A DNA stretch of 64,000 bases from Takakia lepidozioides (lineage: Eukaryota > Plantae > Bryophyta). Location: contig CM060732.1 in NCBI GenBank assembly GCA_030704615.1, positions 14,756,001 through 14,820,000 of the forward strand, given 5' to 3'. The notes beneath the pieces were generated by a model that saw only the letters and a list, made by a program, of their open reading frames with translations, was not told where the DNA came from and ran no database searches. Made by a program: the position numbers and the translations under genes. Positions 23,901 through 64,000 of the stretch are shown piece by piece (within the stretch, counting starts at the first letter, position 1; the number at the start of each line of letters is the position of its first letter).

Positions 23901-25605
23901 CCTCGCAGATGTCCCAAGGTGTCATTGCTCTCATTTTTAAGAAAGGGGACAAAGATTTGATTACCAATTACAGGCCAATAACCTTGCTAAACTCGTCTTA
24001 TAAGATTATTGCTAAAGCCTTGGCAATGAGGCTTCAGCCCTATCGAAAGACTTGTACGACGAGAGCAAACAAGCTTCATGAAAAACAGGCTAATCCTTGA
24101 CAATATTCTGCTTGCGATTGAGGAATTGAACCATGCCTATGTGGATGATCAACCCCTAGCCCTGATCATGCTTGATTTCAAAAAAGCGTTTGATAATGTA
24201 GATTGGTCCTTCCTACTGGGGGTCATGGCTAAGCTAGGCTTTGCAGGACCTTCCTCTCCTGGGTTCGCATTATGCTATCCTCGGGATCAAGCAAGGTATT
24301 GGTCAATGGTGTTCTCTCTACCTCCTTCCCACTGCATAGATCGGTGAGGCAGGGGTGTCTCTTGGCTCCCTTTTAATTTTTGTTGGCGGCAGATGCACTT
24401 GGCCAGCTGCTCCACAATAACCCGGACATTCAAGGGTTGAAGATACCCCGCTCCCTTTCTCCTCCCGCTGGTGGCAAATCGTCTATGTACGTAGATGACA
24501 CAGTGCTTCTCATTGATAACTCCCTATCTTCCAATGTAAGAGCCGGCATCCAGGACCTCAATTGTTTTTGTTCTGCATCTGGCCTAAAGGTCAACTGGGG
24601 AAAGACAGTCGCAATTTTATCCAAGATCAGATTGCAAGCTTCCTGTTCTCACTGTGATCCCTGGGGGGAAGATCTGGGCCTTATCTGGCTTCAAGAGGGG
24701 CAGGCCCATACTCTTTTGGGGCACCTTATCGGTCATGGGCTCTCTGATGAACAACGTTGTGAAGGTGTTGTGCGCATTGGTAAAAAGCAGCTAAGCTATT
24801 GGAGCTCGCTTTCCCTCTCCATCGTAGGAAGAGCCCTCATTGCCAATCAAGTAGTCTTGGCTTCTTCCTGGTTTTCCGCCTCAGTTTGGCACCCGGGCTC
24901 GCAGATAGTTGGTCAACTTAAGGTGCTCACCAGGAATTTCATCTGGGGAGCCACCCCTGATTCCCCAAAGAGGAGGGCGTTGGTTAGTTGGGCGCAGATC
25001 TCGCAGAAAAAGATAAATGGAGGACTGGGGATCATTGACCCTCAGTCCCAGATCCTCTCCTTGCTAGCCAAGTGGGTTCCAAGGATGCTCACTAATCTGT
25101 CTTCACCTTGGAGTATGCTAGTCAGAAACCATGTCATGGATGCATCCCCCTCCACTGGCCCATGGCCGTGCAGTCTCTCCGTTAGATAGTGCAGGGTGTG
25201 AGATCCACAAGAGCCTCGCCCTCGGGATCTAGGGCGTGGCAGTCATTGGTCTGCCTGGCTGAGGTTACGCCCCTTACTATTTCAAACAACTCCTTCTACT
25301 ATAGAAGAGGTCCTAGACCGCCAACCCCTCTTTGGAAATCTTAACTCGGATTCTGGAGAACTTATTCCCTGCTCGAAGAAATGGGCATTCTGGGAACAGG
25401 TAGGGATCTCGCATTTCTCTCACATCTAGGATGAAAGGGCCTTCGCTCTAAGGATACCATTTTGCCGTTCTTATGCTCTCGCAGAGCTGCAGCCTGGGAT
25501 CTTATTATCAACCAGATTCTTGTTCGTTGGACCAATGTTTGCTCGCTGCCTTCTGCCTTATGATCTTTTGCCCATATGGATGGGAGGTTGGGATCAGGAT
25601 CAGGC
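21000..25605 (+). mobile_element. L1-like LINE, degenerate: ORF1 remnant, APE endonuclease, RT; 3' end missing
   Basis: WKLISCNIGG (~22350), LQEHK, NIYAAN, GDFN, RLDRFY; PGLDG, NYRPITLLN, LDFKKAFDNVDW, YVDD (24488-24499), GGLGIIDP; multiple stops and frameshifts. Confidence 0.92.
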
Positions 25606-25634
25606 GAAGCTAGGATATAACCTTCTCAGACCCC

Positions 25635-27885: not shown

Positions 27886-28248
27886 AAGCGGGGGTGAATT
27901 GGTCCTTGCAAGGGGAAAAGATGACATCCTACTTCTTCCTAAAAACAATACAGAGAAGGGCAGCTACATCCATTTCTTCCCTACGTGATAGGATGAATGT
28001 TCCTCAAAATAATCCTAAGCTCATGGCTTCCATAGCTGCAGATTATTTTGCTGAACTTTTTTCCCCTCCTCCTGTTCATGTGTCATCTACCCCTAGTTTT
28101 GCCAAGGTGTTGGACTCTGTCCTCGTCATCCTTGATGATCAGGATAGAGAGGTGCTTTCGGCCTCTTTCACCGCCTTGGAACTATTAGAGGCCACGAAGG
28201 CTCTCGCTTCCTTGAAATCGCCGGGCTTAGATGGTCTCCCAATTGAAT
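27886..28248 (+). repeat. Duplicate of LINE segment 23459-23823
   Basis: Direct sequence match (VNWSLQGEKMTSYFF...SPGLDGLPIE). Confidence 0.95.
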
Positions 28249-32300: not shown

Positions 32301-32880
32301 GGGAGGGTTGAGCTCAAACAAGATGTCCCCATCAAACTCTGCTGGCACATATTGAACCCGTTGCACCCGAAGGGACTCCCAATCAACAAAACGCAGCTCG
32401 CTCTTGCACCCAGGCACCCCCGCGAGGGCTTTCAATTTCGGAATGACACTTGTTATCTCCTGCAATTCATCATCATCCAAGAATGGAGTCTGCACTGGCG
32501 GAGGAATCTCAGAAACATCCTCCAAGGAGGAGTCTGAAAGAGTCACGAATGTGGTGGATGTGCTCACCTCTTGTTTCACATGAGCAAGGCCCTTCTGCTG
32601 CACAACCGATGCTGCAGTGCCAGGGGTGAGTACTGATCCTGCTGATTGTCTTTTCTCTTTTCCAAGGACGCGGTATGTGCCTGGAAGGACTCTCCACTTC
32701 CTTCCACACTCGTGCCCAGAATACTGTTCTTCTCTCCAAGTGCCCAGAATCCAAATTCCCATTGGAAGAGCCGGATTCTGGAGAAGAACAGTAGCCCGCC
32801 ATACTTCCGAGAACAGGTGAGGAGGAGACTGCATCCAAGGGAGAGTTGGACGCCAAAGATGATGTTGATGCTGGACTCAC
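29398..32880 (-). mobile_element. Mutator-like (MULE) transposase pseudogene #1: WRKY/GCM-like Zn finger, DDE, Cys-rich domain, SWIM
   Basis: DGHPWCRTKT..C..C..HMGTHEHP; WLMFDHCKR, FMADS, CLFH, CNLAETVH; CTCPDF...PCKHQYY; GT-AG intron 30907-30773; several frameshifts. Confidence 0.85.
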
Positions 32881-33019
32881 GAAGAAGAATTTAGTGGAAA
32901 AGACGATGGGGGAGATGCTTCAGAACATGCTCGGCGTAGAGAGCAGTCCGAAGCGCAAAGAGTCTCCGGCGATTGGGGAGTCTTCTAGAGAAGCTAAAAA
33001 AAAGGTACAAGTCACCGAT

Positions 33020-36000
33020 TTGGAAGCTCAAACAGAGTGCGGCAACGCACACTGTTTGAGACCCTGTCTTTGTGCTTCATTTTTTATGTGAAAATCGGTC
33101 AAGCTGGGCCTGTTTTTCTGGTTCAATCCACCACTGATTGGAATCTCAAATAGTGTACGGCAACGCACACAATTTGAGACCCCATTTGTGCTTCTCTTTT
33201 GATACGAAAATCGGCCACAAACGAGCTTGTCTGTCTGGTTCAATCCACCACTATTTGGAAGCTAAAATAGTGTGCGGAAACGCACACTGTTTGAGCCCCT
33301 TTTTTGATTTGAAATTCGGGCACATAGGACCACTCTGGCAGGTTGAATCCACCACGATTTGGAAGCTCAAACAATGTGCGGCAACGCACACTGTTATGAG
33401 CCCCCTCTCTGCTTGTTTTTTGATATGAAATCGGGCCCCTAGGGCCACTCTGAAAGGTTGAATCCACCCCAAACTGGAAGCCCAAATAGTGTGCAGCAAC
33501 GCACACTATTTTGAACCCAGTCTCTGCTTTGTTTCTTATGTGAAAATCGGGCCCCTGTGGCCACTCGTTGAATCCACCCCGAATGGGAAGCTCAAACAGT
33601 GTGCGGCAACGCACACTGTTTGAGCCCCCTTACTTGTTTGTTTTTAGATGTGAAAATCGGGCACCTAGAGCCACTCTGGCAGGTTGAATCCACTCCGCAA
33701 ACAATGTGCAGCAACGCACACTGTTTTGAGCCCCCTCTCTGCTTGTTTTTTGATGTGAAAATTGAGCCCCTAAGGCTACTCTAGCAGGTTGAATCCACCC
33801 CGAATTGTAACCTCAAACAGTGTGCGGCAACGCACACTGCCAGTGTGGCCCTATGTGCCCGATTTTCACATAAAAAAACAAGGAAAAAACGGGGCTCAAA
33901 CAGTGTGCGTTGGCGCACTCTGTTTGAGCTTTCAATAATGGGTGGATTCAACCTGTCAGAGTGGCCCTATGTGCCCAATTTTCACATCAAAAAACAAGCA
34001 AGTAAGGGGGCTCAAATTGAAACCACCCCTTATTGGAAGGTCAAACAGCGTGCGCCAACGCACACAATTTGAGCCCCCCTTTGTGATTCCTTTTTGTTGT
34101 GAAAATAGGCCACATAGGGCCACTCTGGCAGGTTGAATCCAACCCTTATTGGAAGCTCAAACAGTGTACGGCAACGAACACTGTTTTGAGCCCCGTGTAT
34201 GCTTGTTTTTTGATGTCAAAATCGGGCCCCTAAAGCAACTCTGGCAGGTTGCAACCACCCCTTATTGGAAACTCAAACAGTGTGCGCCAACGCACACTGT
34301 TTGAGCCCCCCTTTGTGATTCATTTTTGTTGTGAAAATAGGCCACATACGGCCACTCTGGCAGGTTGAATCCTTATTGGAAGCTCAAACTGTGTGCGGCA
34401 ACGCACACTGTTTTGAGCCCCGTCCATGCTTGTTTTTGATGTGAAAATCGGGCCCCTAAGGCTACTCTGGCAGGTTGAATCCACCCTTTATTGGAAGCTC
34501 AAACAGTGTGCGGCAACGCACACTGTTTGAGCCACGTTTTTAGCTTGTTTTTTGATATGAAAATTGGGCACATAGGGCCACTCTGGCAAGTTGAATCCAC
34601 CCCTTATTGGAAGCTCAAACATTGTGCACGAACGCACACTGTTTGAGCCCCCCTTAGTGATTCATTTTTGTTGTGAGAATAGGCCACATAGGGCCAATCC
34701 GCCAGGTTCAATCCAACCCTTATGGAAAGCTCAAACAGTGTGCGGCAACGCACACTGTTTGAGCCACGATTTTAGCTTGTTTTTTGATGTGAAAATCGGC
34801 CACATAGGGCCACTCTGGCAGGTTGAATCCACCCCTTATTGGAAGCTCAGACAGTGTGCGGCAACGCACACTGTTTGAGCCATGTTTTTAGCTTGTTTCT
34901 TGATGTGAAAATCGGGCACATAGGGCCACTCTGGCATGTTGAATCCACCCCTTATTGGAAGCTTAAACAGTGTGTGCCAACGCACACTGTTTGAGCCCCC
35001 CTTTGTGATTCATTTTTTATTTGAAAATAGGCCACATAGGGCCACTCTGGCAGGTTGAATCCAACCCCTATTGGAAGCTCAAACAGTGTGCGGCAACTTA
35101 CACTATTTTGAGCCCCGTCTATGCCTATTTTTTGATGTAAAATTCGGACCCCTAAGGCTACTCTCGCAGGTTGAATTCACCTCTTATTGGAAGCTCAAAC
35201 AGTGTGCGGCAATGCACACTGTTTGAGCCACATTTTTAGCTTGTTTTGTGATATGAAAATCGGGCACATAGGGCCTCTAGGCAGGTTGAAACCACCCCTT
35301 ATTGGAAGCTCAAACAGTGTTCGCCAACGAACTCTGTTTGAGCCCCCCTTAGTGATTCGTTTTTGTTGTGAGAATAGGCCATATAAGGCCACTCTGGCAG
35401 GTTGAATCCAACCCTTATTGGAAGCTCAGACAGTGTGCGGCAAAGCACACTGTTTTGAGCCCCGACTATGCTTGTTTTTTGATGTGAAAATTGGGCCCCT
35501 AAGGCTACTCTCGTAGGTTGAATCCACCCCTTATTGGAAGCTCAAACACTGTGCAGCAACGCACACTGTTTGAGCCACGATTTTAGCTTGTTTTTTGATG
35601 TGAAAATCGGGCACATAGGGCCCAGTCTGGCAGATTGAATCCACGCCCTATTGGAAGCTTAGACAGTGTGCGGCAACGCACACTGTTTGAGCCATGTTTT
35701 TAGCTTGTTTTTTGATGTGAAAATCGGGCACATAGGGCCACTCTGACAAGTTGAATCCACCCCTTATTGGAAGCTGAAACAGTGTGCGCCAACGCACACT
35801 GTTTGAGGCCCCCCTTTGTGATTCATTTTTAATGTGAAAATAGGCCACATAGGGCCACTCTGGCAGGTTGAATCCAACCCCTATTGGAAGCTCAAACAGT
35901 GTGCGGCAACGCACACTTTTTTGAGCCCCGTCTATGCTTGTTTTTTGATGTGAAATTCGGACCCCTAAGGCTACTCTGGCAGGTTGAATCCACCTCTTAT

Positions 36001-36625
36001 TGGAAGCTCAAAGAGTGTGCGGCAACGAACACTATTTGAGCCACGGTTTTAGCTTGTTTTTTGATGTGAAAATCGGGCACATAGGGCCACTCTGGCAGGT
36101 TGAATCCACCCCTTATTGGAAGCTCAAACAGTGTGCGCCAACGCACACTGTTTGAGCCCCCCTTTGTGATTCATTTTTGTTGTGAGTATAGGCCACATAG
36201 GGCCACTCTGGCAGGTTGAATTCAACCCTTTTTGGAAGCTCAAACAATGTGCGTTGCCGCACACTGCTTTGAGCCCCGTCTATGCTTGTTTTTTGATGTG
36301 TAAATCGGGCCCCAAAGGCTACTCTGGCAGGTTGAATCCACCCCTTATTGGAAGCTCAAAACAGTGTGCGGCATCGCAAACTGTTTGAGCCACGATTTTA
36401 GCTTGTTTTTTGATGTGAAAATCGGGCACATAGGGCCCACTCTGGTAGATTGAATCCACGCCCTATTGGAAGCTGAGACAGTGTGCGGCAATGCACACTG
36501 TTTGAGCCACATTTTTAGCTTGTTTTTTGATGTGAAAATCGGGCACATAGGGCCACTCTGGCTGGTTCAAACCACCCCTTATTGGAAGCTCAAACAGTGT
36601 TCGCCAACGAACTCTGTTTGAGCCC
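33020..36625. repeat. Tandem array of ~32 x ~116-bp units, each containing hairpin GCTCAAACAGTGTGCG-(G/C)CAA-CGCACACTGTTTGAGC; 7-unit higher-order repeat
   Basis: Hairpins counted from ~33026 to ~36587 at ~116-bp spacing; three unit variants; one inverted block 33843-34016. Confidence 0.97.
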
Positions 36626-37029
36626 AGAAGAAAAACAACAAGGGAAATGCAAGGAGCCCGTGGGCCATCTCATTATTATTCATAGAGGCGCAGGGCCAAG
36701 AATCAAACGTAGCCTAGACAACTTCTGCCATCCTTCAGGGTCATACTCATAGACAGGCACTAAACAGAAGTACCAGTTCAAACAAAATAACTATATCACA
36801 AATCCAAAGGTAATGGTCTGCCTCGAGGCCCCTGCCCTGTCACCTTCCACTTGTGCTGTGCACTCACCCAGTGCCAATCTCTATGCCCAAAACCCAAACA
36901 AACAACTCGCTGCAACAATTCCAACAGCCTGTGCAACGGCTGGTATCCGTGTGATCTCTTTAGACCTTTATGCCTTTGAATTGATACGGGCTGTTGGATT
37001 TATACGGGGATATTTAGCACGTGCCTTTA

Positions 37030-44449: not shown

Positions 44450-44890
44450 AAATATGGCGCCGAATTTCGCGGTAATAGGGTCCGTAACCTAAAAAAACGG
44501 CGACGTATTTCGCGGTAATAGGTCTCTTTGGCGAAAAATGGTGCCGAATTCCACGGCTATAGGTCCCCTCATGACAGGTAATTCGGCGCCATTTTTCCAG
44601 TGCATGTTCGGACTTAGCCAGTTTTCGGCGCAAAATAGGGAAATTCGGCGCCATTTTTCCAGACACTGTACAAGTGCATGTTGGGACTTAGCCAGTTTTC
44701 GGCCCAAAAAAGAGAAATTCGGCGCCATTTTTCCAGACACGGTACCAGTGCATGTTGGGACTTAGCCAGTTTTCGGCCCAAAAAAGAGAAATTCGGCGCC
44801 ATTTTCCCAGACACAGGTACCAGTGCATGTTGGGACTTAGCCAGTTTTCGGCCCCAAAAAGAGAAATTCGGCGCCATTTTTCCAGAAATG
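44450..44890. repeat. 74-bp tandem repeat with GAAATTCGGCGCC motif (3'-side subterminal region of MULE #2)
   Basis: Motif at ~44580, 44641, 44715, 44789, 44864; inverted motif at 44455 and 44540. Confidence 0.92.
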
Positions 44891-45040
44891 GCCCCACAAC
44901 TGCTTCTGTTGGATCTCAGTTTGAATGGAATATTGCCTCATTCCAGGAGTTTTGGGGTGCATTTCATTACACTGCAAAAAAAAGTCTGATACAGCAAAAT
45001 GCAATTGAAAATATCCATATGGAGGATTCCCTTTGCCCCA

Positions 45041-48000
45041 TCAATGATTTCTGGAATCCCTAAGGAGGAGTTTGTGTAGCTCGTTCACGCTCAACGCCGG
45101 TGCATGAATAAAGTCATCAATAGTCACGTTCATCCTCAACCTCTTCAGGTAAATGTAATACAGATGCTTGCACGGATAATACTTCGAACCCTTCTTTGCT
45201 TCCATCAACGAGAAGTCCGTACAATTGCAAGTCGGCTCCACTCCAATCGTAATTGTGTATACATCGTCGCGTATAGCCGAGCCGGCCGTTGCCATCCGAT
45301 ACACACGCCCAAGGCCGGGTGGGGGTACGTCCACGGAGCTCTGAATAGTGCAAGCCATCCCAAGAGCATTGGCAATCTGAGTCTCATTCAACTTGTTGGG
45401 AGGGTGTCGTCTCTTCACTCTTCCGAATCGCATTGTGGGATGTGCAGAATTGTCCAATCCGTCTCTACTGGACCGAGCAGTCTGCAATGGCTGGGTCTGA
45501 GGAACCGGAAATGCGTGGGCCGGGATGTCTGTGCGTTGCACCATTCGAAATCCTGCTGCAGATAGAGCATCCGCCTCATTCTAAGAGAGGCTGCAACCCG
45601 GTGCAACAGGCCAGACGCCCGGAGGCTCCGGCATTCCCTGAATCCCGTACTTGGGCTTGCCAAATATACAGGTCATTATGTCGTGCCTACAGAACCAAAA
45701 TGTCTGCGTTGTGACGTGAGCAAATGTGGGAGTCAAAAATCTGCCGCTGAAACAAGGTGCAGGTACAGCATCGTGTGGGTTCCTCCGAATCATCTCACCA
45801 CAGCGTGCTCTCGTATCCACCCGGATGGCGCAGCACTTCCCTCGAAATGCCGGCAATGTCCTCGCAATTCTCCACTGTGACTCCGACACTTCTGTCTCCA
45901 CAATGGGAATGTTGTACTGCGTTACTACAGATGGCTCGTTATGTTGCCGGGGCACGCGCCCTGTGCTTAAAGGAGATGGCGATCTTGAACGTGCAGGACT
46001 TGCGGTGCTCGACGAGACCTCCTCGGGCAACATCATCGGACCACGAAGGAGCGTGCGAATATTCTTGTCAGCTCGCCATGAATCCTCTTCTCCACCAGGT
46101 GCCTCGTCAAGTCTTCGTCTCACTGGACGGGTATGAACATCTCCTTCCAAATGTTGGCCTCTTCGCAGCAATGGCGTGTCCCGAAGGCCCTCTCGCAAGG
46201 CCACCGCCCACTTCCGAGGATTCTTCGATCTAAAGGCAGTCCGCATCAGCATTTCCTGCCTGTCCGGCCCCAAGCCCCATTGTTTCCCTTTCAAGAACTC
46301 GTTGTACCTGCATTGCTGCATAATTGACCTCACAATGTCCTCCGTTGTGGCAGTGAGGATGTCCACCAGATGCGCCGCAGAGGAGGCACACCAAGAAGAG
46401 TGCACTGATTCGGCCATGTTTGTCGTGGGCATGTCGGTGTCGGAGTCGAGACACATTTCCTGCACAAGCACATGTTGAGGTTACAAGCAAGTTACAAATA
46501 TGGCCAAGAATAATATTCAACGGGACGCGAATTCGTGCAACTCACCTCCCGCATATAGTCGCCGAACTGGAGGAAACGATAATGCCACCATGCTAGCCAA
46601 CTGACCATTGCTCCCTCGTCTGATTTCCTTACAGCACCTGACGATGTCCACCAAGCCCGTATACATGCAAACTGTGTCTCTGCATCATCCAAGGTGGGAG
46701 CGCGCTTCCACGCAAGACACATGGAACGGTGCTCCTCTCTGAAATCTGGCGCCACGAGCCTGGTTGTGTACTGCGAAAGGCTCTGCAGAAAATGGAACCC
46801 ACAAGATCTCTCCTTGCCTTCCATGGGAACATTGGGGTCTTGCCCGTACACCCTTCGGATGGCAGCCCAATTTGTTTGTGCGTTGTCCGCCATGAAACCA
46901 CGGAAATTCGGAGGGGGCAATCCCGCCTTGGCCATCTGTTCGTTTATTCCCTGCCAAAGAAGCATCTCCGATTGTGTGTCCTCTCCTTTCATCTCACAAA
47001 TAGCAATTGTAATTATCATCCTGCAGTGGGTGTCGTAGACATGTGCACCCATTGTCACCCACTGGTGATTTGTAATTCGCTTGATATGGTCGAACATGAC
47101 CCAACTGTTTGACAAGTCCCCACTTGTCATCCTGTCAACCAGTTCGACGCCGCTGCCAGGTCCACACGTGGACATTTTGAATACGAAACAACGATCTGCC
47201 TCAGTCCCTTGTCCAGGAAACCTACTTCCATGAATGTAGTCATATCCACATCGTCACTTCACCTCCAGAATGGAGTGCATATCCGAGCCACGCCCAATTT
47301 TCTGTTTGCATGAGACAACGTGGTTTCAGACATTCGGTGAACATACGTGGGACACCGACTCCAGCAATGCCTCCATTTCCTTCTCGTCGAGAGGAACTCT
47401 ATCGGAGCCGTCTTCTGACATAATTCTGGCCAATGCCATCTTATGGGCGGCTTGGAGCTGTATCTGTTTGGGTTTGGCACCCGGTCTCAACTTAACCTCC
47501 TCTTGAACGAGCTGCTCTGCTTCGTGGGTAGCCTCCCGCGAGTTCCCCCTCGCCAATTTGTGACAATGGGAACCAACGTGTATGCAAGTTCGGGGTGAGG
47601 TCAGGGAAACGGTGCAACACATAGAACTGCTTGGCATTACAAACAGACATGCAGTGTGGTGGTTCTTTGCAATGCGCACACTTAAATGTGGAGTTCGGAA
47701 CCTTCTCCTGAGCTCAAAATGGTTGATGAGCTGTGCCTGTCCAATCGGTCTCGTTCCTGTGACCTCTGGATTTAAAGTGGAAGCAAGTTGGGGAGAAACA
47801 CCGCAACGCGCCCGCACAAACAACGTAGCGCACCCGCACACCATCGAGCATCTTCATGCTGGTGGTTTTGGTAACGCACCAAGGATGACCGTCATGTTTT
47901 CTATCCATATCTGTCAACATTCCGGACGCCCTCGAGTAGTCCGCCCGAGGAGGGAACTCAAAGAAGATATTACCGTCGACGTCGGCGGGAAGACATGTAA

Positions 48001-48650
48001 CCGATTTAATTGCGAACTTGCTGTAGTCCAGCCCGGCCAGCTTCGACCGGTGTCCCTCCAGGTGAAGCCCTCGCAGAATTTCAAGAATAGATCGAACTGC
48101 GGTGCTCGTGCTGGGAATATGACTCCCTCCTCCACTGACGTCCATTGAGGACTTGCCTGATCTCCAGGACGACCTCGGAACTTCCATGACCTCGTCTGAG
48201 TCGAACAGGTTGTGAACAACCCGGTTCTCGCTCGTCTTCATGGATGGGTTCGGCTCTGGATTTACTTCGTTGCGGACTTCTCTCTTTGAGGTAGCCACTC
48301 TCTGATTCGCGGATTGTTTCGTGGAAGGCGCCAGGATAGAAGGTGCATTTGGCGGGCAAATGAAGTCCCCAACAGCCCCGTATATGACGCTGTCCGATGG
48401 TGGAACTCACCATTCCCTGCCATCGCCGAAATCATCGTGGAGCACAACAATACTCTCGACAACAAGGCCGTTCGAGTCCTTCCTTTCCTCCTCCAAAAAA
48501 ACCAACCCCGGTTTCAGGTGGTATCGAACGCACAGATATTTCTCCATCACCCGGCAGATGTCCCCTCTACACGGAAATGAAGCTCTATGCTCGTGAGGAG
48601 GGCAGTACACTGTAGCGCTCGGGTTTTCCGCCATGGGAGATGTGCACACA
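45041..48650 (-). mobile_element. Mutator-like (MULE) transposase pseudogene #2, same architecture as #1
   Basis: DGHPWCVTKT..CAGALRC..; HVGSHCH; WVMFDHIKR, FMADN, CGFH, TTNMAESVH; CNCTDF...PCKHLYY; GT-AG intron 46545-46460; internal stops and a frameshift. Confidence 0.87.
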
Positions 48651-54400: not shown

Positions 54401-54819
54401 CTAAATTGCTTGTCTAAAGATAAAAAAACGAGGGGGACAATGAGAAGCTGCAGAAGAGTCTCTAACATGGGAGAGGATGTCAATTGACTTTCTCCAATTG
54501 ACTTTTAAACCGGAGGCTTCACAGAAACTGGAGAAGGCAATAAGACGATCTTTGGCAAAGTTTTGTTAAGCCATACAGCTGAAATTGTGTATTATAGTTG
54601 CACCTCACAGATTCAAATGAGATGACTATATGGAAATCACCCTCAGAGGTAGGACTGAAAAGTGATACCGAAATACAGGTGGCAATGCCATCAAATTCTC
54701 AAGGTTTGGTTGTTGGAGGACAATCATGTAGGGAATTAATCCTCAGTCCGCAACCAATCCAGACAGCACAGCTGCCGTGCGAGTGCTGCAGTTGATGTCG
54801 TAGCGGCAGATCCTTGTGT

Positions 54820-56630
54820 AGATGCATATAATGGTACATTTTTGTGGGCAGGACATCAACTTGAACTGGCTGTTGGATGGCCAGTCACATGTGCTGTTGG
54901 GACACCACATTGGACATGACCCAAACGACCTGCATAGAAGTGAATCTGTCCTGGCAAAATTGAAGAAAAAACTAGCATATTGGAGCTCTGTGCACCTATC
55001 CATTATTGACAAAGCCTTGACCGTAAACCAAATTCTTTTAGCTTCCTGCTGGTTTATTTCTTCAGTCTGGTCATCTGGTGTGGCGATTTGTCAACAAAAT
55101 CAAGGTCCTGATTCGAAACTTCATCTGGGGAGCAACACAATCTAGACCTAATTGTCGAGCTGGACTCAGATCACGCAAAAAAGAAGTATGGAGGCCTAGG
55201 TATTTTGGATCCTAACACTCAGATATGTGCCGTGTTAGCCAAATGGATCCCAAGGATTTTTTGCATTCTCTCTGCTCCTTGGAGCATTCTTGTGAGACGA
55301 CACCTTATTCATGCCACACCTCCCCCCCGCCCCCCCGGATCTTTGGCCTGCGTCCCTCAGATGGGTTGTCCAAGGAGGGATTTCGAACAGCTCTCTGGAC
55401 GTTGGCTCCGCTGCTTGGAGGTCCATATGGACAGCCTGAATTAAAATTCTCTCTCAAAAAAGCCCATTGATTGCTGAAGAGGTTTTCAGACAACTCTTTT
55501 TTGGTAACTACAATAGAGACTCTGAGGAGTTAATTAAATGTACTTCGCGTTGGGCACACTATGAAGCTGCTAATGTGTGTCATTTCTCTCGTATTTGCGA
55601 CAATGGAGCTTTGCTCCCAATGCATGAGGCCACTGCTTCGCTTTCTGCAAGGCGTGCCATGTCTGGAGAAAAGATCGTGCAGCAAAAATTAGTGGCTTTC
55701 TTTGGAAGCTCGTTAACAAGATACTAACAAGATACTACCTGTGCGTGCTCATTTCCCTGATCGATCCGTTCAATGTATCTCCTGCCATTTGGGTGCCCAA
55801 GAAACTCTTGAACATTGCTTTGTTTCCTGCCCCCTCACTTCAACTATCTAGAATCTAGTCCTTGGCTTCTACTCCTCATGGAATAATCTGACTATGAACA
55901 GCCCTGCAATTCTACTTCTGAATTATAATCAGGGTCATTCTTGGACCTCATGCCAGGTGTGGGCTGCCCTTAGAGCCTACACTCTGTGGAATGTGTGGAA
56001 ATCTAGGTGTGCCTTCATCTTTGACGGTAGACCACTTTGTGTTAGAACTACTCTGTGTAGGGTTCACTCAGACCTCATGTTTGAGGCCCGCAAGGCATGG
56101 TGGGTTATGGGGGAAGCTTTTTGCAGGTGTGATCAAAGATAGAGAACTCAATTGCTCACTCAATTTGACAACACTTGGGGCAAGGGAGCAGTCATCTGCT
56201 CTGGAGATCCGACATCGGGGATTTGTTGGAATGACTCCATCCCACCAAGTTGGGCGCTCGCTTGCACGTCAATCCCCTATAGATGGTGAAGAGTCTGAAG
56301 TGAACTGGAGGCATCGCAAGTCCCTAAGAAAGACTCGCTCTAGAACCCACCTCTTATTTGAACCTTACAAAAGAAATCGTGGTAGTTATTAGAACCTTTT
56401 ATGCTTTCATGGCAGCCTTCGCTTTGTTATTAAGCTTTTATCTCTCCCTTTCATTCTTCACTGACTTGGCTACGAAGCATTGTCTTCTTGGATCAACCTC
56501 TATGGCACTTCAGATGAGGTTATTGTTTCCTCAATGTACTCCTTGGGCTTTTGTCCCGCTGTTATAAAGTACAGGGCTTCCATCCCCTTTCCTTAAAAAC
56601 CAAAAAAAACAAAACAAAACAAAACAAAAA
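54820..56630 (+). mobile_element. Degenerate 5'-truncated L1-like LINE with internal deletion
   Basis: LLGHHIGH..KKKLAYWSS..ALTVNQILLAS, GLGILDP, C..C..ETLEHCFVSC, LWNVWKSRC; A-rich tail ~56595-56630. An upstream piece FCEASGLKVNW lies on the minus strand at ~54475-54545. Confidence 0.85.
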
Positions 56631-57489
56631 TATCACATTGAGCTCCGGTAAGGCTAATAGATTTGGATGGAATCCCAGATTATGAATGAAATGTGGACAA
56701 GTCATGATGCATAAAGGTGGAAATGTGGGAAGAAGTGGCAAGGAGGTGGCTACCATGTGGCACGATCTTGAGTGATGAAGTAAAACGGATCGCAACCATT
56801 GGTATGTTTGGATGTAAGTCGTGAAGGATGAAGTTGTTTTGTCACGGACGAAATCTCAAACAGACATGGCATTTGTGGTGTTGAAGCGCCACTTAACAAC
56901 AAACTTTAATATTTTAGAGGCTTGTATTAACCCTTATTTTAGAGTATTAACCTTTTTGGTGGGGCCATCCTAAAATCGTATATAACCTTGATCTATATAA
57001 CCTTGGGGCCATCCTTTGATTTGTTGGCTTCTCTTTATTCTAAAGAGGAGACTACGCATCAGTGTCAAAAATTGCTAGGCCATTGTTGTGCCTCCCAAGG
57101 TGTACCTCCTCTCTTTTGCTGAAAACTACTTCCTGATTTGCCTTCTCCAGGTAACACTTCCCTCAGGTAACATCTCTCTTATTGAACAATCTATGAAAAA
57201 TAAATGAATAAGTCTTCAAGTTTATTATGGATGGAAGTAGATTTCACTATTCACAAAGAGGAGCCATACGCCACTAGCCGTCTATTTTCATAATAATTAT
57301 ACTAGGGCTATGCGTTGCTCTACACTACCAGTGACAACTTCTGAGAACAATGATTCGGGTGTGTATGCAGTGAGAGAGACTGTCGTGCGCATACATATCG
57401 CTACACAACTACATCGCTGTCCAAACCACACCATACATATATGCACAATAAAGTAGTCTGCCACAATGATAGAAATCCAACGAACACAC

Positions 57490-57901
57490 TGTGACACAAA
57501 ACATGAAAACCAAACCATCACTCTTAGAAAATAGTAGTCGAGCCAGGGGCACCCCAAGCTATGGGGACTCCACCCCACAACAACCTGTACCCCTACATAA
57601 GCACACTCAAATCTAAACACATGCAGGAGCTCGGTCGCGCAGGCTCAACTCGAGAAAGATGAGCCGCGCGACTGCCGCTCTCGTGAAGATAAGACGGACC
57701 AGGTGTCAAACTAAACTTGACACCTGATTTAACACTTGACCTAAATCCAAGTGTTAAATACAAATAACTAGTTTTATTCTAGCTGTTTTCACACTGTGCT
57801 TATTTAACTTGACAGCTGTCGTGCGCATACATATCGCTACACAACTACATCGCTGTCCAAACCACACCATACATATATGCACAATAAAGTAGTCTGCCAC
57901 A
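57490..57901 (-). repeat. Putative 3' LTR of the Gypsy element (412 bp)
   Basis: Minus strand begins TGTGGCAG and ends GTGTCACA (imperfect 7-bp inverted termini), immediately after a polypurine tract; the partner LTR is outside the window, so the distal end is inferred. Confidence 0.65.
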
Positions 57902-57913
57902 ATCGCCCCCCTA
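57902..57913 (-). promoter_or_regulatory. Polypurine tract (plus-strand primer)
   Basis: TAGGGGGGCGAT directly before the TG of the LTR. Confidence 0.75.
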
Positions 57914-58161
57914 GCTGGTGGATAGGTCCCTCTACCTCCAGATAGCTACAAGATGTAATAGCCACAGCCGTACTAAGTCCTCTATCACTGTCCCTATTGT
58001 ACTCAAACTCTATAGACCAAGAGGCCGGGTACAAGAGTAGCCCCATCGTTAGTCGCCATCTTGCAATCTGTGAACTTGAGCCAGGACCTCGTGTGTTCAA
58101 GGTCTCCTAGTAGCTGGGCCTTGCGTTGCTTGTTAGTCTCCCATGGTTGTATCCACTCCCA

Positions 58162-59472
58162 CTATCCAATGCATTGTGGACATAACCAATCCCCATCTGG
58201 AACCATCTCAAGAGGTGGAGTCAAGCACCCCATATGCCAACCTCTAGAGCATCGATCACACACCAGCATGGTGGCTGCCCCTTTAGCAGACCCACACAAC
58301 ATGCACCTCAAACCTGCAGATACCACTGCCAGGTTTGGGTCAATCCTGCCATCGACATTCGGAAGGTGACATGGCGCACAATTACGCACATGGTCCTTCC
58401 AAGTTATGCCATCCCGACCCTCCAAGACCAAGACGCCTGAGGGCAAGACCTCTCGAACCCTCAAAATAACACGTCTTGCAGTCACATCCAAGGTCGTAGG
58501 AGCAGTCTGCTGCAGATAGACATAGTCACCAGGGTTGAATCTCCGAACCCCAGGACGATAGCCCCCACCACGTATGGTAGCATACCTCAACGTATCACGG
58601 TGTTGTGCAATGGCAAGGTTCTCGAAAGCCATGGGCATGACTCTCTTGAACAACTCTGCACGCTGCTCACATGCACGTGCCCACACGTCCGGATCGTCAA
58701 GGTTAAGAACTGTAGCAGCTTCTCTGCGAATGGATGTAGGCAAATCCGGCTCTCGGCCAAAGAGAAGAAAGTATGGTGAGAAGGAGGCAAGTGATGCTTG
58801 CTTGCTGAACCTGTAGCCCATGGCTAACCAGGGTAACTGAAGGTCCCAATCTCCTAGGTGTCCCTTCTGCAAGCCATACTTGCGCAAACCCCTCTTTACT
58901 GTCTGAACAACTCTCTCTGCCAAGCCATCGGCTTCAGGATGATCCCGAGAAGTGGTGCGGTGGTCTATCAAGGCCTTGTCACACAAAGCCTGAAACTCCC
59001 CCAAGAACTCTCTCCCTTGGTCCGTGAGTACCTCAGCTGGAGCACCGAATCGGCTAAGCACACAATCCAGGAATGCATACGCAGCTCCCTCACTAGCCTT
59101 ATCAGGCAATGGAACCAATTCAATCCACTTGGAGAAGTGCTCCACCATCACCAACACGTACTTGTTGTGGCGCATGGTCAGTGGCAACGGCCCTGCGAAG
59201 TCAAGACTCCACCTGTAGCCCAATCCCATGATCGGAAGAGGGTGCAATTGTGGAGTAGGGGCGTTGAATGAAGCACGCACCCTGTCACACACCATGCACC
59301 TAGCCACAAATTGTTGCACCTCTGTGTGCATACCACGCCACCAATACTGCCCCTGCAGTAGACTATGAGTGCGTCGCACCCCAAAATGCCCCAACTCCTC
59401 ATGGGCATGCCGCACTAACCGTGCCCGCTGTGTTGGGTGAGGCACAATCCTCACTCGACCATCCTCCCACAC
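58162..59472 (-). CDS. Integrase (HHCC, DDE, SH3-like) with C-terminal PHD finger
   Basis: HEELGH..CMVC; SLDFAGP, LTDQGREF, DGLAER; CMLC..CDRC..WHMGC..WLCPQC (C4HC3). Confidence 0.95.
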   Translation of the reverse strand: MWEDGRVRIVPHPTQRARLVRHAHEELGHFGVRRTHSLLQGQYWWRGMHTEVQQFVARCMVCDRVRASFNAPTPQLHPLPIMGLGYRWSLDFAGPLPLTMRHNKYVLVMVEHFSKWIELVPLPDKASEGAAYAFLDCVLSRFGAPAEVLTDQGREFLGEFQALCDKALIDHRTTSRDHPEADGLAERVVQTVKRGLRKYGLQKGHLGDWDLQLPWLAMGYRFSKQASLASFSPYFLLFGREPDLPTSIRREAATVLNLDDPDVWARACEQRAELFKRVMPMAFENLAIAQHRDTLRYATIRGGGYRPGVRRFNPGDYVYLQQTAPTTLDVTARRVILRVREVLPSGVLVLEGRDGITWKDHVRNCAPCHLPNVDGRIDPNLAVVSAGLRCMLCGSAKGAATMLVCDRCSRGWHMGCLTPPLEMVPDGDWLCPQCIG

Positions 59473-59489: not shown

Positions 59490-61265
59490 CCTAGGATCCG
59501 ATCCCTCTCCTTGGCAGTCATAGTGGCTGCCGTGTCTCCACTGCGGAGGTAGTCCAACACAACTGAATCCTCATGTATATCTTTGGCGCCACCCTGCTCA
59601 TTGCTGGCCTCAGGGTCCTCAGACACTTGATCTACAGTCATCCCTGTTGTAGGTCCAACCTGGCCTTCCGCTGCCAAGATACACAGAAATGCAGATGCAT
59701 GCCATCCGGGCACCATCTCCTCGTCCGTCTCACCATGCCACCGAGCTCCAGTGTCATCCTGCTGGCTCGTGCATGGATTGCGACTCAACCCATCTGCATT
59801 TCGATTGACCAAACCCGGTCGATGCACCACCTGAAAGTCATACTCTTGAAGGATGAGTGCCCACCGTGCAAGCTTCCCCGTAAGCGTGACTCCATCAACC
59901 ACTTGAGTGGTTGGTGATCCGTGACAAGGGTGAAGAGATTGCCGTATAGATAGCACCTGAAGTGTGCCACGGCCCACACTGCAGCTAAGCATTCTCCCTC
60001 ATATGAGCTATACTTAGACTCTGCAGCATTGTTCGAGCGGCTAGCATAAGCCACTACGAACTCTCTTCCCTCATCATCCACCTGTGTGAGCACCGCTCCA
60101 AGCCCCAGCATGCTCCAATCTGTATGCAGCTGAAAAGGACGCCCCCTGATAGGTCGTCTCAAGATGGGCGCCGAGGTCAACCTCGCCTTGAGCTCTTGAA
60201 AAGCTTGTTCTTGCTCATCTTCCCACTGCCACTCCTGGTCCACCTTGGTCAGCTTGGTTAGAGCCTTTGCAATGGCACTAAATCCCTTAACAAACCGTCT
60301 GTAATAGTTTGCTAACCCCATGAAAGCTCGAACTCGGCTCACATCCGTGGGGCGTGGAACCTGTGCAATGGACTCTACCTTAGTCTGCTGTACCCCCAAT
60401 CCTCCAGGATATATCATGTGACCCAGATACTCAATCTGGTTGTGGAAAAACTTGCACTTGCCCGGATGTAACTTCAATCCGTGCGTCCTCAAGCGCTCAA
60501 ATACCCCCTGAAGGTGTCTCTCATGCTCCTCCACCGTAGCACTAAAGATGATGATGTCATCTATGTAGCACCGAGCAAACTCCACCCCTGCTAGAATCCT
60601 GTCCATGACTCTTTGAAACTCAGCGGGAGCGTTTTTAAGCCCAAATGGTAAGAACCGCCACTGGTATAGGCAATCCTTCCCGTGCTCATTGATCCCCCAG
60701 AATGCCGTTTTTGCTTATCCGCCTCCTTGATCGGCAACTGGTGATATCCGGATCGTAAATCCAACGTGCTAAAGACCTTGGAATGCCCAATGGCATCAAA
60801 GATCTCCTCTGGTGTTGGCATGGCATACCTATCGGACTTGGTCTGACGATTTACAGGCCGGTAATCACCGCACATACGTCTCTCCGTCCAATTGCCATAG
60901 ACATCCTTCTTAGCTGGCATCACTGTGGCTGAAGCATACTCTCCACCAGAGAGCTCCACCAAACCTGCCTCCCAGAGATCTTGAGTCCTCATCTGAATCA
61001 AAGACCTCTCCATGTCACTGTATCTATAGGGTCTCCGAAAGATTGGCGTGTCAGTGGCCAACTCAATACGGATCTCTTGACCCTTCAGTGCTCCCAAGTC
61101 CTTCAAACTGAAGGCAAAGCAATTCCTGTAAGCCCTCAGGAACCGCCGTATACGTCGTCTCTCTCCTCCGGTGACAATGGGTCCAATGTCAGGCTCCCAA
61201 TTGTCCTCCGTAACTGCAACCTTAAGTCCAGTGGGCTTAGAGGTAGAGGACGCGTCCCGTGGTTG
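59490..61265 (-). pseudogene. Reverse transcriptase + RNase H (frameshifted)
   Basis: RMCGDYRPVN, LDLRSGYHQ, FGLKNAP, YIDD (60567-60556), YLGH, TDWS, YSSYEGE, TDHQPL, NADGLSR. Confidence 0.95.
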
Positions 61266-62630
61266 CTATGCTGCAACCTCTTGAGCAGTACCCCCTTCCT
61301 GCTCAGTCAATGACAAGGCCTCATCCTGCCCCATCATCTCATCATTGAGAACCTCCTCATCCCGAGAAGAATCCCCAACCTCATCCATCACAGCTGCCTT
61401 CGCTGCCAACTCCCTCTGAACCTCGAGCACCTCCCACATGTGCCATGGATGTCTACACCTCGTGGTCCTCACCGGCTCGCCCCCACTCGCTGCCTGTACC
61501 GTCTCGGTAGGCAGAGAGACCGTCAAGGGAAGTGCACTCCGCACTCTACGTTGCTCAGCCATAGCCAAGCTGACAATCCAGGTCAAGCAATTGAGATCCA
61601 TTGCTTGCCCCAACACCTGACGACGTGATGCCTCAGAAAGAGAAGGCACCGCCGTGGTCCCAGTGGAAAACCCCATAGCCCGCTCTCGCTCGTCGGCATT
61701 AGGCTCCACTAACTGCTGCAACTGAGCATCCCACAAGAGGCCAGGTCCACCATCCCGAAAAGCATGGGATCCTGGGAAGCTGAGCAGTGTAGGTAATGCT
61801 GCTCGTGGTTGACCCACCCTGTTGACCACTGCCAAAGGCGAACGGTCATCGTGTCTCACACGTTGAGACTGCCTTCCTGTGTCCAAAATGCCATCCACGG
61901 TGAGGTGTGCTGGCCGCTGCACCCCATCAAATGCACGCTTGAGCAGTGCGGGTGGCATCAAGTTAGTCCACCATAGTCGTGGACGATGAGCCCGTGACCC
62001 CACTGCAGCTGCATCCAGCAACACTGCTGACCCAAGCCACGACCGGACTTGATGCACACTGGCCATCACCCTGGCCCGAGAATCACCCATCAGTGGTACA
62101 TTCTCCAAGATGTATGCTGGAGATACAGCTTGATGAAGCTGCAAGCAGCGCAAAATCCGCACCATCTCCCAAAACAGACCCGTCCTCGAGTCTCGCAATC
62201 CATTGCCATGCCCGGCTGATGAATGCCCTTGGCAGGGCCAACCTGCCACTATCAGATCAATGGAGCCAACCTGCTCCAAATCTTGCGCCCCCAACAAGGA
62301 AATGTCTGCTGGCAAGGCTTGTTGGTATCCACGAACTGCAGACACAGGCAACAAGTCAGGGTACTGCTGTACCAACTGAGCCACATGGCGCAGTGAGACA
62401 CGTCGTGCAGTCTCATCCCTCTCCACATACAGGTAACGCCTTACCCGCACACCTGCCTGTAGCACAGCAGCCAATCCGGTGCTGATCCCGCCAAACAAGT
62501 CCAGAAGGCAAATGCCTTCATCCGGCCGCTGCCACACAAGAGGTGTGGTGTCCAATGGCGACAACTGAGGTGGCCCTGGTGCAATCACCGCACTCTCCTC
62601 CTCTCTGACGGTACAAAAGCTTCTTCCCAA
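61266..62630 (-). CDS. C5-cytosine DNA methyltransferase domain (DNMT3-like) within the retrotransposon polyprotein
   Basis: Motif I LDLFGGISTG, II YVERD, IV DLIVAGWPCQGHS, V DSRTGLF, VI ILENV, VIII AHRPRLWWTN, IX ERERAMGF, X RRQVLGQAMD; canonical order. Confidence 0.93.
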   Translation of the reverse strand: MGRSFCTVREEESAVIAPGPPQLSPLDTTPLVWQRPDEGICLLDLFGGISTGLAAVLQAGVRVRRYLYVERDETARRVSLRHVAQLVQQYPDLLPVSAVRGYQQALPADISLLGAQDLEQVGSIDLIVAGWPCQGHSSAGHGNGLRDSRTGLFWEMVRILRCLQLHQAVSPAYILENVPLMGDSRARVMASVHQVRSWLGSAVLLDAAAVGSRAHRPRLWWTNLMPPALLKRAFDGVQRPAHLTVDGILDTGRQSQRVRHDDRSPLAVVNRVGQPRAALPTLLSFPGSHAFRDGGPGLLWDAQLQQLVEPNADERERAMGFSTGTTAVPSLSEASRRQVLGQAMDLNCLTWIVSLAMAEQRRVRSALPLTVSLPTETVQAASGGEPVRTTRCRHPWHMWEVLEVQRELAAKAAVMDEVGDSSRDEEVLNDEMMGQDEALSLTEQEGGTAQEVAA

Positions 62631-62874
62631 GCTTGTTGCACCCGTCCATCAGCAGCTTGCTGCAAATCCTTGCTCGTACCCCACAACGGAGTGTGAGCAA
62701 CCATGGCAGGCAACTCCGCCGTACCATGCATGTCATCCTGCTCTGCTGGAGGTGGCACATCCTCTGCATGGGCATTGCCTTCCAGCAACTCTCCAGGCCA
62801 ACTAACGGCAGCTGTGAAGGCGGCTAGTGTTGGCATCTTGCCCCGCTGGGCAGCTGCAATACCCCCAATGAATG

Positions 62875-63570
62875 TCACAGGGAGCTGTGCACGGCGACCA
62901 TCCCCGACTGCCATCCAGGCCTGTAGGATGCTGACTCCTCCCAGAAATCCAGGGTGAAGCCCATGGGGTATAACACTGCCCCACCAACGAGGACATCGTA
63001 AGAGACCGCGTCTGTCACAATGGCCTTGGCTCGCATCACTGAGCCATCTACAGGATGATCCGGCTGCAGTCTAATAGCCAACTGATGTCGTGTCATGCCG
63101 CGAGCCTGCTCTGATCCTCCCAGAGATGTCTGTATCTGGAAAGGACAAGGCTCCATATCCGCCTCCATGAGGCCCAAACCTGCAATAGCAGCTCTGCCCA
63201 ACATCAGTGGCTGAGCTCCTGAGTCCAACAAGACCCGCAGTGGCCGGTACTTCTTGCCTGCCGGTCCACTCAAAGTGAAAATGCCTCCCTGGTTGTCTAA
63301 CAAGACAACTCCAGGTGTCACCATGGCGCGCTCAATGGCTGGCCTAGCTGGCAGCTCCGTCAACCTGGCAGCTGCAACTTGCCATGGCGCAGCCGTGGCA
63401 GTCTTGACCCTCAAATCCGAGGATCCCTCTGCCACTACACCTTCCACTAACTCCGCAGAAGATGAAGTGACCTCCCCACTCTCACAAGTGTTGCTGCTAG
63501 TCTGAACACTGCAGCTGGTCTCACCCCCGGCGTCGCAATCATTGTTGCCGAGAACAGTGGGGCCTGACAC
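62875..63570 (-). CDS. Retroviral-type aspartic protease region
   Basis: RVLLDSGAQPLML ... YDVLVGGAVL. Confidence 0.85.
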   Translation of the reverse strand: MSGPTVLGNNDCDAGGETSCSVQTSSNTCESGEVTSSSAELVEGVVAEGSSDLRVKTATAAPWQVAAARLTELPARPAIERAMVTPGVVLLDNQGGIFTLSGPAGKKYRPLRVLLDSGAQPLMLGRAAIAGLGLMEADMEPCPFQIQTSLGGSEQARGMTRHQLAIRLQPDHPVDGSVMRAKAIVTDAVSYDVLVGGAVLYPMGFTLDFWEESASYRPGWQSGMVAVHSSL

Positions 63571-64000
63571 ACAGAGGTGGCTGCCCCCAATAACACACCG
63601 GCCGCACTAGCCTTGGCAGCAGGAGTCAATGCTGCACGTGTAGCTCTCCCCAATGGCATAGTAACCTCCGCCTCGGTAACAGTCGGGCGAGAACTAGGTG
63701 CCATGGATGGCGTCGACACAGTCTCCGCCAATGTGAATGACTGAGGAAGCCTTGCCTGACGGCTTGCCTCCCCACGCTGTGGATCCAATTCCACCTCTGC
63801 ACCTCGTGGCTCAGGAACTCGTGCTGCTCCTCGAGTCACGGCTGCAGCAGACTCCACCTGCTCTAGTGGTAGTGCTGCTCCGCACATAAATCCCATGCCT
63901 CCCATATCTCCTCCCTCAGGAGCAGGAGGTGGACCATCCCGCCTGGGAGCCGGTACCGCCTGAGCTATAGCCATGGCAGCGAGCCTCTGCTCTAGCTGCT
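63447..64000 (-). CDS. Gag C-terminal low-complexity region (partial)
   Basis: Open Ala/Pro-rich frame directly upstream of the protease; positional inference. Confidence 0.55.
   Translation of the reverse strand, partial: QLEQRLAAMAIAQAVPAPRRDGPPPAPEGGDMGGMGFMCGAALPLEQVESAAAVTRGAARVPEPRGAEVELDPQRGEASRQARLPQSFTLAETVSTPSMAPSSRPTVTEAEVTMPLGRATRAALTPAAKASAAGVLLGAATSVCQAPLFSATMIATPGVRPAAVFRLAATLVRVGRSLHLLRS

Follow-up and report, generated by a model that had tools for sequence, protein, structure and literature searches.

A bryophyte Ty3/Gypsy retrotransposon family carries a DNMT3-like cytosine methyltransferase ahead of a conserved and probably leaky stop codon

We analysed 64,000 nucleotides of Takakia lepidozioides DNA (assembly GCA_030704615.1, contig CM060732.1, positions 14,756,001 to 14,820,000; referred to as the window), the last part of which holds, on the minus strand, a broken copy of a bryophyte Ty3/Gypsy retrotransposon family. 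The first open reading frame (ORF1) of this family joins Gag and protease (PR) to a complete DNMT3-like cytosine methyltransferase (DNMT), and a conserved stop codon lies between the DNMT and the reverse transcriptase (RT). We put the chances at about even that the enzyme is packaged through its fusion to Gag and methylates the element's own cDNA. Why retrotransposons carry an enzyme that normally silences them is a question dating from 2018, and activity has yet to be demonstrated for the Gypsy version; the family described here brings the question into Marchantia polymorpha, a transformable model.

An initial annotation of the window, made from the sequence alone, had described an uninterrupted frame of ~450 codons with C5-methyltransferase motifs in canonical order and a catalytic cysteine codon at 62234-62232. 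The frame is indeed open for 460 codons (61266-62648), the motifs follow one another from 62504 to 61596, and the cysteine is residue 139 (Table 1), although the motif words quoted there as resembling DNMT3 were those of DNMT3A in the alignment and not those of the window. The profile check proposed in that annotation gave a match to PF00145 (E 2.8e-13), the sole Pfam family matching the frame. By sequence, the solved relatives ranked as DNMT3A (E 3.6e-10), DNMT3B, a DRM and HhaI, and the family profile scored DNMT3A at 99, DNMT3B at 87, two DRM proteins at 59 and 47 and HhaI at 35 bits. An AlphaFold2 model of the domain, built with 86 sequences (mean pLDDT 96), aligned best to DNMT3B (Z 29.1, root-mean-square deviation 2.6, 279 residues aligned) and DNMT3A (Z 27.7), followed by M.MpeI (Z 25.4), HhaI (Z 22.9) and DNMT2 (Z 21-22); every top match listed by Foldseek was a DNMT3. 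These results confirm a complete DNMT3-like enzyme whose model is closest to DNMT3B and DNMT3A. The motifs show no DRM rearrangement, and motif order, profile scores and folds all agree with the earlier description of an unpermuted enzyme lacking a chromodomain.

Relatives of this enzyme were numerous. Protein searches returned 138 and 72 relatives. Those with a species name came from Marchantia polymorpha, whose domain shares up to 74% identity, and from Calypogeia, Riccia and Sphagnum, with Chromochloris, Monoraphidium and Hariotina at a greater distance. Among representatives clustered at 50% identity a profile had 413 matches at E 1e-30, and the best 120 of 2817 matches of a search seeded with RT brought in Klebsormidium nitens, Closterium and Tetraselmis as well. 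No Physcomitrium-named match appeared in the protein or RT-seeded searches, most of whose matches carry no species name. The window DNMT grouped with liverwort and moss sequences in the DNMT tree, and Marchantia has at least five full-length Gag-PR-DNMT ORF1 models, annotated as hypothetical proteins, in which all six motifs checked are present; Mp4g09160, Mp5g06330, Mp5g06860, MpVg00370 and MpVg00540 are intact copies. Metagenome loci were taken as the best 80 of 103 DNMT-seeded matches, and most of those fetched belong to one family, here termed Sphagnum-type, whose protein ends match Sphagnum-named records. RT followed the DNMT in 50 of 50 fetched loci holding both ends. DNMT-seeded searches cannot reveal members without the domain; in the RT-seeded search, the only such test, five of six PR-bearing proteins had the DNMT after PR, the sixth (P0493) being distant and likewise drawn from the best 120 of 2817 matches. 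P0493 is a Gypsy polyprotein with protease, RT, RNase H (RH), PHD and integrase (IN) and a Dam match (PF05869), without a C5 DNMT.

Between families, synonymous sites were near saturation (pS 0.68-0.88), and the nonsynonymous divergence (dN) of the DNMT was 0.20-0.29 among the window, L010 and Sphagnum-type copies and 0.47-0.51 against the more distant L048, lying between that of integrase (0.10-0.19) and that of protease (0.33-0.42). The between-family ratio dN/dS of the DNMT was 0.06-0.17 where computable. The catalytic cysteine was kept in 75 of 78 copies covering the site and the glutamate of ENV in 76 of 81, and the DNMT and RT-RH trees agreed (Mantel rho 0.71, 0 of 999 permutations, 39 of 79 eligible elements). 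Judged by these comparisons, Marchantia, Calypogeia, Riccia and Sphagnum share the DNMT as a trait of the family, one on which purifying selection acts. The 50 concordant loci, the retained cysteine and the low dN/dS bear out the earlier expectation of a family trait with intact catalytic residues, and the three outcomes that had been named as contrary to it (family members lacking the domain, dN/dS near 1 and a catalytically dead consensus) were not seen.

Scans for the motif pattern yielded no relatives among 14 matches in IMG/VR and one among 27 in GTDB. This one, L081 (CADCWO010000201.1, L081:1-9285), is a complete eukaryote-type DNMT-Gypsy element on a 9158-nt circular contig in a cyanobacterial genome bin and is likely mis-binned contamination, not a bacterial gene.

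The initial annotation had also placed the methyltransferase inside pol, between protease and RT. The position stood, with protease upstream and RT downstream, but the TAG at 61268-61266 separates the DNMT from the RT ORF. That annotation mentioned neither this stop nor the split repeats and the PHD described below. A stop occurred at the DNMT end in all 51 testable sequences (TAG in 36, TAA in 15), which represent four families (that of the window, L010, L048 and the Sphagnum-type), with L081 as a fifth. The six nucleotides after the stop were CAACCC in 46 sequences, CAACCA in two and CAACCT, TAGCCA and TAACCC in one each, and 49 of the 51 had CAR-YY. The exact UAG-CAR-YYA readthrough motif was found in three of the five divergent families (window, L010 and L081) and was one base off in L048 and the Sphagnum-type family (CAA-CCC in the latter); within the window, 5 of 1459 TAGs are followed by CARYYA. 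The same motif serves readthrough in the Copia element SIRE1. L081 presents the arrangement unbroken, its ORF1 of 1346 amino acids (Gag-PR-DNMT) ending at TAG-CAA-TCA and 1047 codons following in the same frame, and full-length Marchantia ORF1 models have the same end point after the DNMT. No variant at a frequency of at least 2% fell on 61260-61268 in four runs, whereas 61258, 61259, 61271 and 61272 vary. The stop-bearing families formed one clade (UFBoot 90) without the single-ORF Klebsormidium and Closterium forms.

From this comparison of sequences, the TAG closing the DNMT frame is conserved and not a product of decay, and it very probably supports programmed readthrough, giving mostly Gag-PR-DNMT and a minor full-length protein. 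Because the DNMT ends ORF1 ahead of the conserved stop, the enzyme would be made at the level of Gag; the likely leaky stop thus changes the enzyme dose to be expected, and hence which mechanisms are plausible. The first in-frame ATG past the stop lies 48-117 codons on, inside RT, in three families; in the other two it is within five codons of the stop, and reinitiation is therefore possible there. A stem-loop 3' of the stop is suggestive, being strong in one of five families (L081, z -4.5) and weaker than -1.5 in three others.

We propose that most ribosomes would stop after the DNMT and that occasional readthrough would give a Gag-PR-DNMT-RT-RH-IN-PHD protein. Fusion to Gag would carry many DNMT copies into the particle, where they would methylate the cDNA before or at integration, and the PHD would steer the integrase away from active promoters, to inactive chromatin. 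Host enzymes would then maintain the methylation of the pre-methylated copy, which would sit quietly, with less harm to the haploid host and less recognition as fresh foreign DNA. The solved PHDs nearest to that of the element are those of CHD4, PHF12, KDM5A/B, ATXR5, DPF3 and PHF21A. PHDs of CHD4, PHF12, KDM5, ATXR5, DPF3 and PHF21A prefer unmethylated H3K4. The enzyme is probably catalytically active on DNA, and the chances are about even overall that its fusion to Gag takes it into the particle and that it works on the cDNA before or at integration. A precedent for activity exists in the DNMT3 domains of DIRS elements: de novo methylation of CG has been demonstrated, in yeast, for those of SymbioDIRS and for no other enzymes of this sort (PMC5890265).

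Several observations weigh against this proposal. Of the 51 stops, 48 come from the Sphagnum-type family and are thus not independent, and that family, besides departing from the motif by one base, has an ATG three codons past the stop. The 3' stem-loop is poorly supported across families, with a consensus of -4.2 kcal/mol and an unfavourable covariation term. When the Gypsy domain of Klebsormidium was put into yeast, no methylation resulted, an outcome that its authors call inconclusive (PMC5890265); the Klebsormidium protein retrieved here has EHV for ENV and may differ from the one tested in yeast. Host bryophytes own a de novo DNMT3 (PMC6453930). Within the Sphagnum-type family the DNMT dN/dS was 0.39-0.62, like that of other domains, and mutations are frequent in the arginine codons of motifs VIII and IX, which indicates that most of its copies are decaying. 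Decay by C-to-T change (12.7% at CG, 14.9% at CHG and 4.2% at CHH) is the pattern expected of host methylation and gives no pointer to the element's enzyme. Finally, a Gag-level supply would far exceed the need of one 9-kb cDNA, which would fit a trans or structural role as well.

In the first of these alternatives, which we judge unlikely, the enzyme in its abundance would work chiefly in trans: derepression of the family would flood the nucleus with a de novo methyltransferase, and host chromatin would be methylated at transposons, whether older copies of the family or its competitors, or at host genes. The predicted Gag-level expression would uncouple most of the DNMT from RT, unlike in the algal forms with one ORF, whose authors made a case for action in cis (PMC5890265, peer-review file). 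In Marchantia, transposons have raised expression in Mpmet mutants, the term 'methyltransferase activity' is enriched among the genes whose expression rises, and transposons gain much non-CG methylation, a change absent from Physcomitrium Ppmet (10.1101/363937). Marchantia has the full-length ORF1 models with all motifs, and there was no Physcomitrium-named match. However, most matches bear no species name, the authors of the Mpmet study favour a cause resembling RNA-directed DNA methylation (10.1101/363937), and an activity in trans would be hard to maintain by selection on the element. A bolder form of the idea is doubtful. In it the ancient green-plant Gypsy clade would constitute a second, transposon-encoded de novo methylation system in bryophytes; with the DNMT relocated ahead of a leaky stop, any derepressed copy could produce the enzyme at Gag level, methylate chromatin in trans and so drive the Mpmet rise of non-CG methylation. 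If this is true, a transposon would be the author of part of a land plant's methylome. The reading of bryophyte methyltransferase mutants may in any case need to account for these copies.

Slightly less probable than a general action in trans is a domain kept for binding or coating nucleic acid, in a nucleocapsid-like or shielding role, or for methylating genomic RNA instead of DNA. A structural function would suit the Gag-level supply, the domain from Klebsormidium showed no activity on DNA in yeast (PMC5890265), and some algal members carry EHV in motif VI. Bryophyte members, however, have retained PC, ENV and the arginines of motif VIII despite saturated divergence, and the modelled fold is nearer to DNMT3 (Z 29) than to DNMT2. 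We give still less credence to a copy-number brake, in which the enzyme would methylate the element's own promoter repeat on integrated copies and not the particle cDNA. This option was raised in PMC5890265 and would suit a family as large as the present one (76,297 contigs of sequencing run X1 match the element), but Pfam finds no targeting domain on ORF1, and the PHD is on the readthrough product. A one-off capture, chimera or assembly artefact without function, which the six breaks of the window copy might have suggested, is already refuted by the same layout in 50 loci and in named liverworts, mosses, Closterium and Klebsormidium, by purifying selection and by the congruence of the DNMT and RT-RH trees, and has next to no probability left.

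The preferred reading, packaging with Gag and methylation of the cDNA, concerns the family, and the window copy itself is damaged. From the window edge the minus strand carries, in order, the Gag end, protease, DNMT, RT, RNase H, DDE integrase, PHD and then repeats (Table 1), the 5' end of the element and its 5' repeat A lying beyond the edge. Six breaks interrupt the copy in its assembled form, near 63486, 62901, 62604, 60708, 59886 and 59492; none is within the DNMT, the 60708 and 59886 breaks fall in the RT-RNase H region, and that near 59492 precedes the integrase. In this copy the DNMT is read in the frame of RT but, owing to the shifts near 62901 and 62604, not in that of the protease. 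Since other contigs from the same organism differ at the break positions, including indels near 62901 and 62604, the breaks are private to this copy or assembly errors; the window copy is thus dead or mis-assembled, and the family is, by its sequences, functional. The family is very large in this organism, summed contig depth in X1 being ~1e6 on the element against 70-100 on unique flank, a figure that is not a copy number. CpG observed/expected was 0.54 in the element and 0.57 in the rest of the window and is uninformative, and Rfam gave no match anywhere in the window. The 3' end of the element adjoins LINE (long interspersed nuclear element) sequence, fragments of which lie at 54743-56500 and 13422-15187, the latter with a zf-RVT match at 14357-15184.

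Table 1. Minus-strand features of the DNMT-bearing element, in window coordinates
Feature	Position	Strand	Evidence or remark
Gag C-terminal part	63474..64000	(-)	tblastn with Marchantia ORF1 P0122, 42% identity, E 3e-21
Aspartic protease region, LLDSGA ~63225	62902..63561	(-)	Pfam gag-asp_proteas E 0.0065 (weaker than curated cut-off); 50% identical to P0122
PR-DNMT linker	62561..62905	(-)	frame differs from both neighbours; tblastn frames -2, -1, -3 against P0122
DNMT-bearing open frame	61266-62648	(-)	460 codons, stop to stop
Complete DNMT3-like C5 cytosine methyltransferase domain	61539..62555	(-)	unbroken inside; Pfam, profile, fold model
Motif LDLFGG	62504-62487	(-)	
Motif YVERD	62429-62415	(-)	
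Motif DLIVAGWPCQG	62258-62226	(-)	holds catalytic Cys
Catalytic cysteine codon, GWPCQG	62232..62234	(-)	residue 139
Motif ENV	62105-62097	(-)	
Motif RAHRPRLWWTN	61994-61962	(-)	
Motif ERERAMGF	61691-61668	(-)	
Motif RRQVLGQAMD	61625-61596	(-)	
In-frame stop TAG + CAACCA, ORF1 end	61260..61268	(-)	UAG-CAR-YYA readthrough motif
Possible stem-loop 3' of stop	61155..61252	(-)	z -2.6 and -1.4 for two lengths
RT + RNase H, YIDD ~60567	59869..61208	(-)	Pfam RVT_1 7e-24, RT_RNaseH_2 5e-34
DDE integrase, zinc-binding and core domains	58590..59460	(-)	Pfam Integrase_H2C2 8e-17, rve 3e-14
PHD finger ending integrase frame	58165..58320	(-)	Pfam PHD 1.1e-10
Conserved G-run CCAGCTAGGGGGGCGA, polypurine-tract-like	57903..57918	(-)	directly before repeat B1
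Repeat B1, 88 nt	57816..57903	(-)	88/88 identical to B2
Internal B-A junction CGCACGACA-GC-TGTCA	57810..57825	(-)	TG and CA element ends around palindrome
Repeat A2	57468..57814	(-)	by analogy with L014, L041, L061, L066, whose A1 and A2 match
Repeat B2	57380..57467	(-)	element end at CA, ~57381

The terminal repeats are split. The window shows B-A-B at the 3' end, its two identical 88-nt B repeats lying 436 nt apart, and the full A-coding-B-A-B plan was seen in the complete loci L041, L061 and L066; by analogy with such loci, the partner repeat A1 of the window copy is predicted to lie past the window edge. The G-run ahead of B1 is near-identical between window and Sphagnum-type copies and similar in L081. 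The junction CGACA-GC-TGTCA recurs in L014, L021, L061, L066 and L081, across three families with otherwise different repeats, and could template both element ends, which start with TGTCA and finish with GACA. Among nine two-ended loci, all Sphagnum-type, a 4-bp target duplication was perfect in eight and agreed at three of four bases in the ninth; these ends and duplications point to insertion by the DDE integrase. No TGG start was found after A1 in L066, the only copy inspected for a primer site. As the ends are split repeats, ordinary long terminal repeat (LTR) finders would be expected to miss the family. Four of the nine loci (L027, L033, L044 and L069), likewise flanked by the duplication, read A-coding-B with a single B and lack the A-B that would follow; this would fit a collapse in assembly, recombination between B repeats or a separate short cDNA, and these loci offer a clue to the replication of split-repeat Gypsy elements.

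Two domain layouts were found among the relatives. PR-DNMT-RT occurs in bryophytes, Klebsormidium and Closterium, with the DNMT also before RT in Tetraselmis, and RT-RH-DNMT-IN-PHD in Chromochloris, Hariotina and many other records. The latter layout, seen in P0186 (which also has a G-patch), P0374, P0155 and about 100 other proteins, had no description in the literature searched. Its members formed one clade in the DNMT tree (UFBoot 96) and stood apart from PR-DNMT-RT in the RT tree, which suggests a single DNMT capture with later relocation of the domain, the deep nodes being poorly supported. Regarding the source of the domain, three phage Dcm enzymes scored 66-81 bits on the profile that gave DNMT3A 99 (the trees being without host DNMT3), and the nearest ESM Atlas clusters, of which one holds streptophyte and two hold phage methylases, were level at 0.96, favouring no single source.

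Elsewhere in the window, 33000-36650 is a tandem satellite of ~30 copies of a ~116-nt unit, each with a short inverted motif, and 23513-28129 a large inverted duplication with 1203-nt arms, 97% complementary, that contains L1-type LINE RT fragments. Two broken transposase-like gene copies lie on the minus strand (45041-48406 and 29968-32876), with a weak SWIM finger (E 0.0014); we take them to be Mutator-like, and the other frames gave no Pfam match. Internal degenerate telomere-like T(n)AGGG runs occupy 19948-20497. A ~49-nt array of nine copies with a GC hairpin in each (12429-13019) and a 74-nt array of four copies (44594-44896) are possibly subterminal repeats of DNA transposons.

With regard to known systems, the PR-RT-RH-IN order and the best match of the L081 RT-RH (Ty3 RT, E 2e-77) place the family in Ty3/Gypsy, as do TG..CA ends with a duplication within the 4-5 bp of that group; in place of two full LTRs and a tRNA primer site it has split repeats. 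Three narrower assignments were rejected. A PHD is found where a chromovirus would have a Chromo domain, for which there was no match at E 0.1 in the window integrase frame or at E 0.01 in L081 ORF2. None of nine Sphagnum-type duplications reads NCGN, as for Phygy (REXdb, PMC6317226), and a DDE integrase is present with no tyrosine recombinase match in the frames scanned, which sets the family apart from DIRS.

The stop has parallels in viruses. UAG-CAR-YYA is the type I readthrough motif of tobamoviruses, and there, as in gammaretroviral gag-pol, a stop sets the ratio of two polyproteins (PMC3542737); in gammaretroviruses it follows Gag, whereas here it follows protease and DNMT. No report of readthrough in DNMT-bearing elements was found in the literature searched, which included few subscription papers.

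A known relative is KnitGypsy-Dnmt3 of Klebsormidium nitens, described in 2018 (PMC5890265), which shares the Gypsy domains, an unrearranged DNMT3-related enzyme, DIRS-like A..B-A-B repeats and purifying selection. The relation to a Klebsormidium retro-DNMT suggested by the initial annotation held up: K. nitens KFL_009030040, assumed to be a copy of that family, has the same PR-DNMT-RT-RH-IN order, its DNMT sharing 45% identity across 260 residues (E 1e-60), although its motif VI reads EHV where bryophyte members keep ENV. In KnitGypsy-Dnmt3 a single ORF holds the DNMT together with RT and RNase H, whereas here a stop intervenes, and since the single-ORF feature is lacking we set the present family apart as a variant, with liverworts and mosses as its hosts. 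The searched text of PMC5890265 has no mention of a PHD, a target duplication or readthrough. There the capture is regarded as confined to the lineage of K. nitens; matches here span streptophyte algae, bryophytes and chlorophytes, changing the picture to an old green-lineage clade with two domain layouts.

SymbioDIRS-Dnmt3 likewise combines a retrotransposon-borne DNMT3 with A..B-A-B repeats, but it is a tyrosine-recombinase element (PMC5890265), in contrast to the DDE integrase, TG..CA ends and 4-bp duplications found here. EpiLTRs, or DAM-carrying LTR elements, also pair a methyltransferase with a chromatin reader, theirs being a DNMT sister to DNMT4 with DAM and a chromodomain (10.64898/2026.05.21.726589). 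Gypsy-7a_cRei of Chlamydomonas is a Gypsy element with a PHD finger, for which an intergenic insertion bias is reported, and differs in having two ordinary LTRs and no DNMT described in the accessible text (PMC9940879).

As to earlier records of the kind, the 2026 preprint lists 'streptophytes (Gypsy-DNMT3)' as a known class, with Marchantia, bryophytes and Klebsormidium absent from the main text as accessed (10.64898/2026.05.21.726589); PMC12344493 cites the kind as 'streptophytes', and the accessible text of PMC11244446 adds nothing further on it. No land-plant description was found in the literature searched, to which the same limit applies and in which supplements may hold bryophyte sequences, in line with the initial annotation's statement that no characterised land-plant family was known. 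A 2019 review held transposon-encoded DNA methylases to be absent from land plants 'such as tracheophytes' (PMC6338049); the bryophyte family contradicts this statement for land plants, tracheophytes being the review's own example.

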